DNA from: Nitrospiraceae bacterium
GTDB lineage: Bacteria > Nitrospirota > Nitrospiria > Nitrospirales > Nitrospiraceae
Direction: 5' to 3'
DNA: 64,000 nt
Assembly: GCA_037442105.1 (NCBI GenBank)
Contig: JBBIQV010000004.1
Span: 1 to 64,000 of the forward strand
Shown: positions 1 through 6,900 of the stretch, in pieces
Layout of the letters: each line of letters starts with the position of its first letter
Numbering within the stretch: the first letter of the stretch is position 1
Translations under genes and position numbers: made by a program
Notes under the pieces: generated by a model
Told to the model about the DNA's origin: nothing
The model's database searches: none
What the model saw: only the letters and a program-made list of their open reading frames with translations

Positions 1-248
1 CCAAGGAAGAGGGGGGGCGGCACACGCCGTTCTTCAACGGGTACCGGCCGCAGTTTTATTTCCGGACCACGGACGTGACGGGCATCGTGCAGTTGAATCC
101 GGGGGTGGAGATGGTGATGCCGGGGGACAATGTGAGTGTGGCGGCGGAGTTGATCAGCCCGATCGCGATGGATCAAGGGTTGCGGTTTGCGGTGCGCGAG
201 GGCGGCAAGACCGTCGGCTCGGGGGTGGTCACGGAAATCTTGGCCTGA
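1..248 (+). CDS. tuf: Elongation factor Tu, 3' end (partial, copy 1)
   Basis: Translates to ...[27 protein letters not shown]...[10 protein letters not shown]; nearly identical to 16523-16770. Confidence 0.98.
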
Positions 249-286
249 AGTTGAGAGCTGTCAGCTGACAGCTAAGGAGAGTTGAG

Positions 287-436
287 ATGCGCGAAATCAT
301 CGACATGGCCTGCACGGTCTGTAAAGAACGGAATTATTCGACCATGAAGAACAAGAAGAACGACCCTGACCGACTGGAGCGCAACAAGTTTTGCCGCGTC
401 TGCCGGAAACACACGCCGCATAAGGAGGTGAAATAG
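287..436 (+). CDS. rpmG: 50S ribosomal protein L33 (Zn-ribbon, CxxC..CxxC form)
   Basis: Not in ORF track; hand-translated [57 protein letters not shown] upstream. Confidence 0.96.
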
Positions 437-538
437 GCGAGAGGTTATAGGCTATGGGCTATCGGTAAGAGGATTGATAGCGGTCACCTCCGCTACCTAG
501 TTGTCTATCGCCCTTTGCCTATTGCCTGCGCGAAGCGG

Positions 539-615
539 AGGGGCATGGTGTTCAACGGCTAGCACGTCGGTCTCCAAAACCGAAGGTCTGGGTTCGATTC
601 CTAGTGCCCCTGCCA
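539..615 (+). tRNA. tRNA-Trp (CCA)
   Basis: Acceptor stem AGGGGCA/TGCCCCT, anticodon arm TCGGT-CTCCAAA-ACCGA, T-loop TTCGATT, encoded 3' CCA; canonical rpmG-trnW-secE position. Confidence 0.97.
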
Positions 616-783
616 CCCCAAGCTTGCTCGTACTGGGCGTCCTATGATGGCTCTTGGCGCCTGGATGGACACCTTGGGGGTTGGTTTTTGATGTAGAAGC
701 TTGCTCGACCCGGAGCCTCTCCAATTGCTCTTGGCGACGAGATAAATAACTTGATGGAATGATTCAGAAATTAGGAGGCAAGG

Positions 784-978
784 ATGTTTTCGAAGCTGAC
801 CGCGTCGATCCGCGAATTCTTTAGCGACGTCAGGGGCGAGGTGAAGAAGATCTCGTTCCCGACACAGGCTGAAACGGTTGGCTCAACGACGGTTGTCGTC
901 GTGTTCTGCATCATCATGTCGTTGTATCTCTCGGTGGTGGATTCGTTCCTGGCGTGGCTGGTGCGCAAGATCATTTGA
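784..978 (+). CDS. secE: Preprotein translocase subunit SecE
   Basis: EVKKISFP motif plus single TM helix, upstream of nusG. Confidence 0.95.
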   Translation: MFSKLTASIREFFSDVRGEVKKISFPTQAETVGSTTVVVVFCIIMSLYLSVVDSFLAWLVRKII

Positions 979-1072
979 TGGCAGCGTCGCCTGATGACGT
1001 ACGGAACACGGAGATGAGTTTGGGGGCGGCCGGATGTGGGTGGAGTGTCCGGTGTTGGTCTGAGGGGTGGCG

Positions 1073-1609
1073 ATGAATAAGAACTGGTATGTCATTCATA
1101 CCTATGCCGGGTTTGAAGGGCGTGTGAAAACCAGTCTCCTGGAACGAGCTAACCAGATGGGATTGGTCGAGAAGCTTGGCCAGGTGCTAGTGCCGACGGA
1201 AGATGTGGTCGAGATTAAAGATGGAAAGCGACGGACCTCCCGACGAAAGTTTTTCCCGGGCTATGTCTTGGTCGAACTCGAATCGCCGCTGACGGATGAA
1301 ACTTTGCAGATGATCAAGGAGACTCCAAAGGTCACCGGGTTTGTCGGAGGCGGAGCCCAGCCAACTCCCCTTACGGCGGAGGAAGTGGAGTCACTCCTGA
1401 AGCAGGTGGATGCGAGCACGGCCGGCCCGCGCGAGCAGATTCGGTTTATCAAGGGGGACAACGTTCGGATTATCGACGGGCCTTTCTTAGGTTTTAATGG
1501 AGTGGTTGACGAGGTAGACACCGATCACAGTCGAGTGAAGGTGTTCGTCAGCATCTTCGGCCGGTCAACACCGGTCGAACTGAGTTTCTTGCAAGTGGAA
1601 CGGATTTAG
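1073..1609 (+). CDS. nusG: Transcription termination/antitermination factor NusG
   Basis: WYVIHTYAGFE, FFPGYVLV, KOW domain, IFGRSTPVEL. Confidence 0.98.
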   Translation: MNKNWYVIHTYAGFEGRVKTSLLERANQMGLVEKLGQVLVPTEDVVEIKDGKRRTSRRKFFPGYVLVELESPLTDETLQMIKETPKVTGFVGGGAQPTPLTAEEVESLLKQVDASTAGPREQIRFIKGDNVRIIDGPFLGFNGVVDEVDTDHSRVKVFVSIFGRSTPVELSFLQVERI

Positions 1610-1733
1610 ACAGTCAGCCAGTAGCGAATAGCCAGCAGCGAACAGCAATGAGCGGGCAGCACGCTGCAAATAATCTGATAGTTCCATGCTACTAGCTGTT
1701 CACTCCTCGCTGCTCGCTTAGGAGAGTAATTCA

Positions 1734-2156
1734 ATGGCAAAGGAAGTATCTGCGCAGATCAAGTTGCAAGTCCCCGCGGGGAAGGCCAACCCGGCCCCGC
1801 CCATCGGCCCGTCGCTGGGCCAGCACGGCGTGAATATTATGGAGTTCTGTAAACAGTTTAATGCGCGAACTCAGAAGGAAGGCGACAGCATTATCCCTGT
1901 GATCATCACTGTTTATAAGGATCGCACATTCACCTTCATCCTGAAGACTCCGCCCGCTTCCGATCTGCTCAAAAAGGCAGCCGGAATTATCAAGGGCTCC
2001 GGGGTTCCTCATAAGGACAAGGTGGGTAAGGTCACGAAGGCGCAGGTTCGGGAAATCGCCCAGAAGAAGATGACGGACTTGAATGCGGCCGATCTGGAAG
2101 GGGCGATCAAAATTATTGAGGGCACAGCTCGGAGCATGGGGGTTGTCATCCAGTAA
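1734..2156 (+). CDS. rplK: 50S ribosomal protein L11
   Basis: [19 protein letters not shown] motif. Confidence 0.98.
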
Positions 2157-2195
2157 CGACTGGATGCGAGCAAAGCATAAGTAAGGAGCAGGGAC

Positions 2196-2888
2196 ATGGG
2201 AAAGAAGATGAAGGCAGCGACGGAGAAGGTGGAGCCTCGCCTCTATGGCCTGCGGGATGCCGTCGAGGTCGTAAAGAAGGCTGCCTATGCCAAGTTCGAT
2301 GAGTCGGTGGATTTGGCGATTCGGCTGGGAGTGGATCCTAAACGATCGGATCAAATGGTGCGCGGCACTACTGCCTTGCCGCACGGGACGGGGAAGAAGG
2401 TGCGGGTCCTCGTTTTTGCGAAGGGAGAAAAGGAGCAGGAAGCGCGCCAGGCTGGTGCCGACTACGTCGGCGCTGACGATCTGATGGAAAAAATCAAGGG
2501 CGGATGGATGGATTTTGACTGCGCCATTGCCACGCCTGATCTGATGGGGGCCGTCGGAAAGCTCGGCAAGGTCCTCGGACCGCGCGGACTCATGCCGAAT
2601 CCGAAGACCGGCACGGTGACTTTCGAAGTGGGAAAAGCTATTGCGGAGATTCGAAGGGGCCGCGTGGAATTTAAGGTGGAGAAGGCGGGGATTGTTCAGG
2701 TTCCGGTGGGGAAGGTTTCGTTCGAGCCCACGAAACTCTACGATAACGCCCAGGCTGTATTGGAATCGGTAATGAAGGCCAAGCCGGCATCCTGCAAGGG
2801 CCGGTACCTTAGGAGCGTGACCATCTCCAGCACGATGGGGCCCGGCGTGAAACTGGACACGGTGGCCATTGCCAAAGCGTGGAGTTGA
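2196..2888 (+). CDS. rplA: 50S ribosomal protein L1
   Basis: [29 protein letters not shown]. Confidence 0.98.
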
Positions 2889-2922
2889 GAAGGAAGCTAG
2901 GGAGAGAAAATAGGAGAGGGAG

Positions 2923-3858
2923 ATGAAACGGGAAGAGAAAGCGACAGCGGTTGCTGAGCTGACGGAAAAGTTCGGTCGAGCCAGGATCGCGATTCTGACT
3001 GAATGCGCGGGCCTTCCGGTCAACCAGGTGACGGAACTCCGCAGGCAGTTGCGCGGGGCCAAGGCAGAATACAAGGTCGTCAAGAACACCTTGGCGGCGA
3101 GGGCCTGCGAGGGTACTAGCATCGCCGGTGCGAAGCCGCACTTTAAGGGGCCGTTGGGCGTCGTGATCGGCTACGACGACCCTGTTCTGCCGACCAAGGT
3201 GTTGAGGGACTTCATTCAGGCTGAGAAACGCGAGGAAAAGATCAAGATTACCGTCGGCGTCCTCGATGGCAAGGTCGTCCAGCCGGCCGAACTGGCCGCT
3301 GTCGCAAAATTGCCGAAGAAGGAAGTCTTGGTGTCGATGCTTCTTTCAGCCATGCAGGGGCCGGTGCGGGGTCTGGTCTATGCGTTGAGCGGTGTGTTGA
3401 GCGGATTAGTGCGAGTGGTGGCAGCTATTCAGGAAAAAAAGAAAGGGGAGGGGGACATGCCAGCAACAGAAGGAAGGCTATCGCAGGACGAGTTGATCAA
3501 AGCAATCGAGAGCATGAGCGTATTGGAGCTGTCCGAATTGGTCAAGGGGCTCGAGAGCCGGTTTGGTGTGACGGCGGCGGCTCCGGTGGCGGTGGCGGCT
3601 GCCCCGGCCGGAGGTGGCGCGGCAGCGGCTCCGGCAGAGGAAAAGACGGCTTTTGACGTAATCCTCGCCAGCGCTCCGGCGGATAAGAAAATTCAGGTCA
3701 TCAAGGTGGTTCGCGAGTTGACCAGTCTTGGCTTGAAGGAAGCCAAAGATCTTGTCGAGGGCGCCCCGAAACCGGTGAAGACCGGCGTGACGAAGGAAGA
3801 AGCGGATACGATGAAGAAGAAGCTCGAGGAAGGCGGAGCAAAGGTCGAGATCAAGTAA
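2923..3858 (+). CDS. rplJ: In-frame fusion of ribosomal protein L10 (aa 1-178) and L7/L12
   Basis: N-part has L10 motifs ([26 protein letters not shown]); no stop before the L12 moiety. Confidence 0.9.
3457..3858 (+). CDS. rplL: 50S ribosomal protein L7/L12 (probable internal start within the fused ORF)
   Basis: ATG at 3457 preceded by [49 protein letters not shown]. Confidence 0.88.
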
Positions 3859-3975
3859 GAAGTAAGAGCGTCAATGGTCATTCGTCAACCTTGTGTGGAT
3901 GGTCGGCGACTGGCGGTTGACGAGAGGCGCGCACGGCTGGTGCGCGCGTGACGATTTAGCTTGGAGGAGTGAGGA

Positions 3976-6900
3976 ATGCCCGAAACGACTCTCAGTGAGT
4001 TCGTCGAACGGAAGGACTTCTCTCGAATCCGTACCAGTATCGAGATTCCGGATCTGATCGAGATACAGAAGCGCTCCTACGAAGAGTTTCTCCAAATGGA
4101 GGCGGAACCGGAGCGCCGGAGCGATCAGGGGTTGCAAGCCGCCTTGGCGAGCGTGTTTCCGATCGCCGATTACAACAATACGGCTGTGTTGGAATTCTCC
4201 AGCTACTCCCTGGGGGCCCCGAAGTACGATGAGCGGGAGTGCCAAGAGCAGGGCATGACCTTTGCGGTGCCGTTGAAGCTCCGCGTTCGCCTGGTCGTGT
4301 TCGATAAAGAAGACAAGGGACCCAAGAAGAAAGTCCTCGATGTGCGCGAACAAGAGGTCTACGTCGGAGAGCTTCCCTTGATGACCGAACGGGGGACGTT
4401 CATTATCAACGGAACAGAGCGGGTCGTCGTGAGCCAGCTCCACCGGTCTCCTGGCGCGTCCTTTACCCATGATAAGGGTCGGACGCACGCGAGCGGCAAA
4501 GTCCTCTATTCCGCCCGCATCATCCCCTATCGTGGTTCGTGGCTCGATTTCGAATTCGACGCCCGGGACATCCTCTATGTCCGCATCGATCGCCGGCGCA
4601 AGATGCAGGCAACGATTCTCCTGAAAGCGTTCGGCTATTCGGCCGACGATCTCCTTAAGATGTATTATCCAGTCGAGGAGATTCGCGTGGTCAAGGGTAA
4701 ACTGATGCGGAAGTTGGATCCGGAGATCCACCACGGGCTGCGGTGCGCCACGGAAGTGACGGAGAAGGGGGGCAAGGAGCCGATCGTTCGGGAGGGTGGG
4801 AAGCTGACCAGGACGTTGATCGCTCGCTTGAAGGCAGCCGGTATTAAGGAAGTGCCTGCCGCGCCGGCGGAATTTGTGGGCCGAGCGGTGTTGACCGAGT
4901 TGGTCGATCCTAAGAGCAAGCAGAAAATTGCCGAGAAGAATCAGCGTCTGACGGCGGAGATCATCGAGAAAATTCTGGAGAGCGAGGTCGAGGATTTCAA
5001 GGTCATCTATTTGGATACCGCAACTGCGACACCTGTCATTCTCGACACACTGGAGATGGAACGAACCGGCTCCAAGGAAGAGGCGATGGTGGAAATATAT
5101 CGCCGCTTACGGCCGGGAGAAACTCCGTCGATCGATACGGCGAAGGCGCTGTTCGACAACCTGTTTCTCAACGCCAAGCGCTACGATTTGTCGCCTGTGG
5201 GGAGGCTTAAACTCAACAAGAAGCTTGGACTCGATCTGCCGCTCGATCAGCGGACGCTCACGGCGCAGGATATCGTCGAGGTCATCCGCTATCTTGTGAA
5301 TCTCAAAATGGGGAAGGGAGAGATCGACGACATCGACCATTTGGGCAATCGCCGGGTTCGCTCGGTCGGCGAGCTGTTGGAGAATCAGTTCCGGCTGGGT
5401 TTGGTTCGGATGGAGCGCAGCATCAAAGAGCGCATGAACCTGCTCGATATGGAGACCGTGCTTCCGCACGACTTGATCAACGCAAAGCCGGTGGTGGCGG
5501 CGATCAAGGAGTTCTTCAGCAGCAGCCAGCTCTCGCAGTTCATGGATCAGACGAACCCGCTGGCGGAGATTACGCACAAACGCCGTCTGTCCGCGCTCGG
5601 TCCTGGCGGGCTGACACGGGAACGGGCCGGCTTCGAGGTCCGCGACGTGCACCCCTCGCACTATAGTCGTATCTGTCCGATCGAAACGCCCGAAGGACCG
5701 AACATCGGCTTGATCACGTCGCTGGCGACCTATGCACGCATCAACCAGTTCGGATTTATCGAAGCGCCCTACCGTAAAGTCGTAAAGGGCCGCGTCACGG
5801 ATACCATCGAGTTCTTGTCGGCTATCGAGGGTGACAAATATGTCATCGCGCAGGCCAACTCGAAAGTCGACGGGTCCGGCCGGTTGGTATCGGAAACGAT
5901 CTCGGCCCGATACGGCGGTGATTTTATTACGGCGTCACCCGACAAAGTCGAATATATGGATGTGTCGCCGAAGCAGGTGGTCAGTGTGGCGACCGCGTTG
6001 GTGCCGTTTCTTGAGCATGACGACGCCAACCGTGCCTTGATGGGGTCCAACATGCAGCGCCAGGCGGTGCCGCTCATTACGTCGGAGGCTCCGCTCGTCG
6101 GGACTGGGATGGAAGCCGTTGTGGCGCGCGATTCTGGTTATGTCGTGCAAGCTCGGCGGGCAGGGGTGGTGGAGAGTGTGGATGCGACCCGCATTGTCGT
6201 GCGAGCGGATTCCAAAGAAGGGCGTCGTCGGAACGATGCCGGGCTCGACGTGTACGAACTGATCAAGTTCCAGCGCTCCAACCAGAATACGTGTATCACG
6301 CAAACGCCGGTTGTACGGATCGGCCAGCCGGTCAAGAAAGGCCAGGTATTGGCCGACGGTCCGGCGATCGATCACGGCGAGTTGGCGTTGGGCAAGAATG
6401 TGCTTGTCGCCTTTATGCCGTGGGGTGGGTTCAACTTCGAAGATGCGATTCTCCTCAGCGAAAAGCTGGTTCGCGAGGATGCCTTCACCTCGATTCATAT
6501 CGAAGAATTCGAGGTCGAGGCGCGCGATACAAAGCTGGGCAAGGAAGAAATCACCCGCGACATTCCGAACGTGGGGGAGGAAGCCCTGCGCAATTTGGAT
6601 GAAAGCGGCATTATCCGCATCGGCGCGGAGGTCAAGCCGGGGGACATCTTGGTCGGCAAGGTGACGCCGAAAGGGGAAACGCAGCTCACGCCGGAAGAGA
6701 AATTGCTGCGGGCGATCTTCGGTGAAAAGGCCGGCGATGTGAAGGATACTTCCCTAACCGTTCCTCCCGGCGTCGAGGGGATCGTCGTCGATGTGAAGAT
6801 TTTCTCGCGCAAGGGGTTGGATAAGGATGAACGCTCCAAGAGCATCGAGAGCGAAGATGCGTTGAAGCTGCAGCGCGATCACCATGACGAGTTGCGGATC

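Follow-up and report, generated by a model that had tools for sequence, protein, structure and literature searches.

The ribosomal stalk recruits every translational GTPase, and in its canonical bacterial form, uL10(bL12)4-8, it is built from the products of separate rplJ and rplL genes (E. coli; T. maritima, 1ZAV). In the window studied here, the whole stretch of 64,000 nucleotides that was analysed, the same domains lie in one uninterrupted frame, which raises the question of how a several-fold excess of bL12 would arise without termination-reinitiation or an L10 leader.

The joint rplJ-rplL frame and its operon

The locus is laid out as follows:

2889..2922, + strand: rplA-rplJ spacer of 34 nt, too short for an L10 leader and with no Rfam match
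2923..3858, + strand: rplJ-rplL joint frame, a uL10-bL12 fusion of 311 aa and 32.8 kDa
2923..3444, + strand: uL10 part (aa 1-174), colinear with T. maritima L10 up to the C-terminus
3430..3444, + strand: codons Q170-K174; a single substitution would turn any of them into a stop, and none of the 85 fused loci has a stop here
3457..3858, + strand: bL12 part (133 aa, 13.7 kDa), with N-terminal dimerisation helices (aa 188-214), hinge and C-terminal domain (aa 244-311)

The first-pass annotation had described L10 as running in frame into L12 within one ORF, and profile searches upheld this description. The single 311-aa frame (ATG start, TAA stop) scored above the cut-off for both bacterial families, with NCBIfam NF000955 for uL10 at 163.8 bits (cut-off 85; aa 4-173) and TIGR00855 for bL12 at 157.7 bits (cut-off 84.4), the latter with dimerisation domain, hinge and C-terminal domain all present. 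Pfam placed L10 (PF00466) at residues 1-97, L12_N (PF16320) at 188-234 and the L12 C-terminal domain (PF00542) at 244-311. The bL12 part matched 1DD3 with an E-value of 4.6e-40, and a Foldseek search with a model of the fusion returned uL10 and bL12 structures. By tblastn against its own genome, a metagenome-type assembly in 62 contigs that is 86.7% complete, the fusion locus was single copy and a second rplL was not found.

The junction reads CAG GAA AAA AAG AAA GGG GAG GGG GAC ATG, or Q170-E-K-K-K-G-E-G-D-M179, with the ATG at 3457 in frame. No stop codon occurs in any frame between 3410 and 3493, a wider interval than the 3421-3457 for which a stop-less junction had been claimed. It follows that a single indel in the A7 run (3434-3440) yields no stop ahead of the Shine-Dalgarno (SD) sequence, as the first-pass annotation had also argued; what that annotation lacked is that single substitutions, as opposed to indels, at codons 170-174 would recreate a stop. 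With all frames open over 3410-3493, the canonical arrangement of two genes with a stop after rplJ is absent.

For comparison, 96 loci were examined, 85 fused and 11 separate; the 85 were the best-scoring matches, one of them from an unpublished genome (G006), and they are kin, so that counts over them are not independent. Gene order in the window is tuf-rpmG-tRNA-Trp-secE-nusG-rplK-rplA, the 311-aa frame, rpoB and rpoC (names from translations), which shares the canonical order rplK-rplA-rplJ-rplL-rpoB-rpoC; unlike the canonical operon, the fused locus lacks the stop, the spacer and the L10 leader. A scan of 16 loci for the leader (RF00557), which canonically lies upstream of rplJ, gave a sole, weak match of 33.5 bits (gathering threshold 44) in the unfused locus L058. 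The rplA-rplJ spacer of the fused loci is short (median ~35 nt; 82 of 85 measured); family f5 and some other classes have spacers of 157-286 nt. We considered a link between the fusion and loss of the leader and rejected it, since 16 of 19 additional class relatives that lack the fusion (loci L131-L149) likewise have a spacer below 100 nt. As the leader is absent from most unfused class relatives too, its loss preceded the fusion.

Downstream, the rplL-rpoB spacer (3859-3975) holds two hairpins (-46.5 kcal/mol, z -2.7) with no U tract, possibly acting as an attenuator or processing site where the stalk gene gives way to rpoB. The minus strand carries long open frames at 1731-3122 (opposite rplK-rplA-rplJ) and at 3871-4734 (opposite rpoB), and antisense frames over the fusion also occur in several relatives; these frames are most likely shadows of codon bias.

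Distribution of the fusion in Nitrospirales

The same read-through recurred across the order. A full-length, stop-free frame was present in 38 of 40 relatives, the other two being one locus cut by a contig end and one genome without a match. A search of 401 genomes of the order, including the unpublished G617, matched 369; all 150 of the matches listed were stop-free, with 236 further matches beyond those 150. The conclusions rest neither on G617 nor on the other unpublished genome, G006. In a 301-genome sample of the phylum, order members were again stop-free among the matches listed, and outside the order all 45 of the listed matches that spanned both halves held 1-4 stops, with 287 further matches beyond those listed. 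When 26 order genomes with split, weak or missing matches were re-searched, 24 matched and none had a junction stop, the odd matches being explained by contig breaks or by breaks early in L10. The first-pass annotation had looked to close relatives for a stop ahead of position 3457 as evidence against its reading; at the junction, none of the matches listed from the order, nor of those re-searched, has one. Two loci, L102 (G608) and L114 (G439), have N-terminal L10 breaks near codons 77 and 51-81, respectively, with the junction intact, and these breaks are probably assembly errors.

Within the class, 71 genomes outside the order were searched. L10 was matched in 68, and in 67 of these its open frame was at most 255 aa. 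The remaining match, G657, is fused with a different junction and is the only such case among 36 matched genomes of its order. In two L10+L12 trees, each built from a subset of the loci, the fused rows of Nitrospirales formed one clade, with support of 96/93 (20 of 31 rows) and 97/91 (11 of 41 rows); G657 falls apart from this clade, yet its joining was not rejected (p-AU 0.124). The frame at the G657 locus (L130, G657:C122) runs from near locus position 770; its junction is …QNKSNAQEGKEEAM…, and the stretch leading up to the ATG is rich in purines.

Based on these searches, the fusion appears to be common to the sampled members of the order, Nitrospira and its kin. The first-pass annotation had taken the fusion for a property of the one locus; the locus is indeed fused, and it was the local character that did not stand, the fusion being order-wide and similar fusions occurring in other lineages. 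NCBI records from Nitrospira japonica, N. moscoviensis and Nitrospira sp. KM1, which are orthologues 84-87% identical over all 311 aa, carry the name [quoted passage not shown]. These names give one product, without an internal start or a free bL12, and many other orthologue records are called merely L7/L12 or L10. No study devoted to a natural L10-L12 fusion was found in the literature searched by titles and abstract starts; outside that search lies the work of Davydov et al. 2013, reportedly a survey of stalk stoichiometry, which may mention these sequences. The fusion is built from known parts, is labelled as such in databases and is apparently unstudied.

The internal start and the maintained read-through

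Two initiation sites are apparent within and ahead of the joint frame, with SD energies calculated for an assumed anti-SD because no 16S 3' end turned up in the assembly:

2912..2925, + strand: uL10 start, with SD AGGAG at 2912-2916 and ATG at 2923, -7.3 kcal/mol
3442..3454, + strand: internal SD zone AAAGGGGAGGGGG, read as K-G-E-G, -11.6 kcal/mol
3457..3459, + strand: in-frame internal ATG (M179), putative start of free bL12

The strong SD-like sequence that had been noted ahead of the L12 ATG, GGGGAGGGGG at 3445-3454, holds up both in its calculated energy and in its conservation among the fused loci. An in-frame ATG is kept in 85 of 85 of these, at position 178-181. Over the same loci, again with the assumed anti-SD, the internal start has a mean SD energy of -9.65 kcal/mol; the L10 start averages -7.76, and 510 further Met codons in frame average -3.20. 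The M179 site is the strongest Met site by SD in 80 of the 85. The codon for Gly175 is GGA or GGG in 80 of 80 loci; the tree shows no change there between purine and pyrimidine, compared with 6-20 such changes at each of 17 other conserved glycine columns, and K174 is AAA in 78 of 84. In family f3 (5 loci) an AAGGAGG stands in a different register, where it is read as K-E-D/E, that is, as other residues. Selection at the internal start plainly acts on bases and not on residues.

The surroundings of M179 also resemble a gene start. A 40-nt interval at M179 averages -2.5 kcal/mol compared with -9.0 for the frame, is the least structured stretch of that frame, and falls in the top decile in 68 of 85 loci; third-position A reaches 0.48 in the eight codons after M179 compared with 0.14-0.17 in gene bodies. 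The residue following M179 is P, A, S, T or V in all 85 loci, the kind that permits removal of a first Met. The bL12 part has its own SD and start codon, as rplL has in the canonical operon, and, as in nested dual-start genes, the internal SD and start codon show the marks of selection. A strong, unstructured start is likewise shared with canonical rplL (cf. PMC13001810); unlike there, initiation of bL12 in the fusion cannot follow rplJ termination.

In the window, structure is lower at the L10 start (0.0) than at the internal one (-3.3), and over the fused loci the internal start is the less structured of the two, or equal, in only 59 of 85, so that a 5:1 ratio of free bL12 to fusion is one that we infer. 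Higher codon adaptation in rplL than in rplJ is described, for species with strong bias, in PMC13001810. In our set of 85 loci, adaptation was higher in the bL12 part in 31 only and no step at M179 favored that part; bias is weak in this genome. A consensus scan of the plus strand from 1 to 4200 found no internal promoter.

The absence of a stop at the junction was assessed over the tree of loci, with rates fitted on 51 four-fold sites. At codons 172-174, ~57 nonsense changes would be expected under neutrality (35 when K174, a part of the SD, is set aside), and none was observed in the 85 loci. Stops do not interrupt matches in the genome search, which would thus have picked up any reverted loci. 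These codon comparisons show that the read-through is maintained by selection against a stop at codons 172-174. The selected property may be the tether, the RNA context or translational coupling, and the nonsense test fits all three. A stop at codon 174 would create TAAGGAG, with L10 then ending where T. maritima L10 ends; the reverse change, loss of that stop, would be an easy way for the fusion to have originated.

Stalk composition, alternatives and related systems

Two predicted elements bear on how the tethered bL12 might be placed:

3319..3441, + strand: predicted C-terminal helix alpha8 (aa 133-173), of the length of three bL12-dimer sites
3442..3483, + strand: predicted flexible linker (aa 174-187), coil, pLDDT under 50

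In PMC3299993 and PMC4592705, bL12 sites are given as ~10 residues each and dimer number as tracking helix length. The C-terminal helix of the L10 part aligned gap-free with the three-dimer L10 of T. maritima (1ZAV chain A) through query residue 174, and two-dimer L10s aligned only to ~residue 158. Three 10-residue sites are accommodated by alpha8 on this alignment and on the predicted helix, in agreement with the long, three-segment helix that had been proposed from the sequence. AlphaFold predicted residues 133-173 as a helix and 174-187 as coil, with the bL12 helices beginning at 188; the model has low overall confidence (pLDDT 66.7, pTM 0.43), low also near the junction, and left the tethered domain unplaced. 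Modelling aa 125-222 as a complex with a single free N-terminal domain of bL12 scored 0.18, which speaks neither way. As the 14 linker residues follow directly on the outermost site, the tethered bL12 could plausibly fold back into the distal dimer. Separately, we rejected the idea that the longer N-terminus of bL12 is an adaptation to serve as linker, since comparable extensions occur in unfused relatives.

Since bL12 works as dimers whose loss slows E. coli growth (PMC3299993), a lone fused bL12 should be insufficient. We consider it likely that the stalk consists of one uL10-bL12 chain plus about five free bL12, with one arm tethered, supplied from two starts in one frame. The rplJ stop would have been lost once, in the ancestor of the order, with the rplL ribosome-binding site retained, so that one frame would yield two products. 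Initiation at 2923 and read-through would give uL10-linker-bL12 (32.8 kDa), and initiation at the internal SD and ATG at 3457 would give free bL12 (13.7 kDa) in several-fold excess. On the 23S rRNA, uL10 would hold three bL12 dimers along its three-segment helix, five of the bL12 being free chains and the sixth the tethered one, which would fold back over the 14-residue linker to the outermost site. We infer that both proteins are made, at a ratio near 1:5, and that the tethered copy occupies the distal dimer site; the benefit may lie in a first partner supplied in cis, which would stabilise both uL10 and the outermost dimer. The covalent L10-L12 with free L12 from internal initiation that the first-pass annotation proposed gains support, at the level of sequence, from the fixed frame, the conservation of ATG and SD at synonymous sites and the three-segment helix.

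Archaeal and eukaryotic uL10/P0 has a C-terminal arm of its own, and by comparison the tethered bL12 could be an extra, seventh arm outside the three dimers, with six free bL12 joining the fusion. The dual-start evidence fits such an arrangement equally well, and dimer-surface conservation is uninformative because the tethered and free copies share one DNA. We find it unlikely, however: the N-terminal hairpin of a bL12 without a partner would leave a hydrophobic face uncovered, bL12 dimers are strong in solution (PMC3299993), and the linker starts exactly at the end of the outermost site.

It is rather improbable, in our judgment, that the fusion is a precursor cut in the linker, with an ordinary uL10(bL12)6 as the mature stalk. 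The linker is predicted to be disordered, is rich in K, E and G, and has residues that are explained by the SD and not by a protein role. Yet no protein motif is kept in it, f3 and other clusters differing in linker residues, and restoration of the stop would then be near neutral, contrary to the missing nonsense changes. GenBank annotates one product and codon usage has no step at M179, as would suit a fusion that is the sole product, with SD and ATG as relics and a stalk of either a single bL12 or several fusion chains. Relics, however, should decay at synonymous sites, and Gly175 and K174 do not; the SD outlives a change of register, all three dimer segments are kept, and tblastn of the 86.7% complete genome found no second rplL. 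We regard a sole fusion product as very unlikely.

Just ahead of the SD in the window, A AAA AAG at 3435-3441, which we take to be a dnaX-type slippery sequence, could end uL10 by programmed frameshifting, with no fusion accumulating. An X XXY YYZ heptamer is present there in only 7 of 85 fused loci, and the distance to the first stop varies, from 4-175 codons after a -1 shift to 5-25 after a +1 shift, with no conserved position. The conserved heptamer and nearby conserved stop of a dnaX-type -1 site are both lacking, which makes frameshifting highly improbable.

Contigs from runs X2 and X3 cover 3405/3408-4100 and are unchanged over 3405-3616, with no indel; the comparison is of contigs, X2 and X3 are so alike in size and content that they may be a single data set, and the source could be X1. 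An error of sequencing or assembly would suit the metagenome-type assembly, with its 62 contigs, and the homopolymer runs at the junction, but an identical junction recurs in other runs' contigs, in single-contig genomes and in named Nitrospira records, and this conservation across relatives refutes an artefact, to which we assign a negligible probability: the fusion, conserved among relatives, forming one clade and labelled at NCBI, is real.

The reading that we prefer, two starts in one frame and one tethered arm, has partial counterparts among known systems. The genes infB (IF2), cheA and clpB have nested in-frame starts that give a long and a short product; like them, the locus has one frame with an internal SD and ATG, and the short product would be the C-terminal part. 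Unlike them, the fusion joins two ancient separate genes, and here the short product would have to outnumber the long one, both entering one complex in a fixed ratio. Archaeal and eukaryotic P0 carries a flexible factor-binding tail besides P-protein dimers, which the fusion would resemble as a stalk base with a covalent factor-binding arm and free dimers. Unlike in P0, the arm is non-homologous, a whole bacterial bL12, and archaeal L10 models reached 24-34 bits against cut-offs of 331-547, over the first 70-90 residues only. From the canonical stalk it would differ in having one bL12 covalently tied to uL10.

PMC3299993 and PMC4592705 describe as unanswered why the stalk requires several bL12 dimers that can exchange, and a lineage-wide natural tethered arm would be a ready test of stalk stability, factor recruitment or uL10 turnover with a fixed arm. 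Annotation, proteomics and marker-gene work on nitrifiers would be affected as well: free bL12, probably among their most abundant proteins, would be hidden inside a single 311-aa record.

Similar fusions were also found beyond the order. Among 50%-identity representatives, the best 150 matches included 21 further full-length fusions, and a profile of these found more. Both searches together gave 138 proteins of 290-335 aa, 131 of them clean L10+L12, in 26 clusters that are known from protein sequence; one is Nitrospirales, one is named Candidatus Fervidibacterota, and 17 are single sequences that may include errors. In 20 of the 26 clusters a Met stands at the junction, often after G-G or G-E, which look like a translated SD; 6 clusters lack it. 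Where measurable, the distance from helix to L12 is at least 52 residues, in line with three sites, a tally biased because the query itself had three sites. The ESM Atlas contains fused clusters with Nitrospirota or Bacillota as the commonest taxa, which serve as leads only. It is quite possible, if somewhat short of probable, that the tethered-arm stalk is a recurrent, selected bacterial design, in which rplJ and rplL merged many times independently, the internal start was kept each time, stoichiometry would be set by two initiation sites in one frame and one arm would be non-exchangeable.

The P0122 cluster (73 proteins), a large lineage with a uL10-bL12 fusion of its own, has a near-invariant junction that ends SSGGEM directly before the first bL12 helix; a metagenome scan with the P0122 query returned one locus, L099, unfused and unrelated. 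P0125, P0139, P0149, P0158 and P0160, of 320-1056 aa, carry 4-8 stretches resembling the bL12 C-terminal domain.
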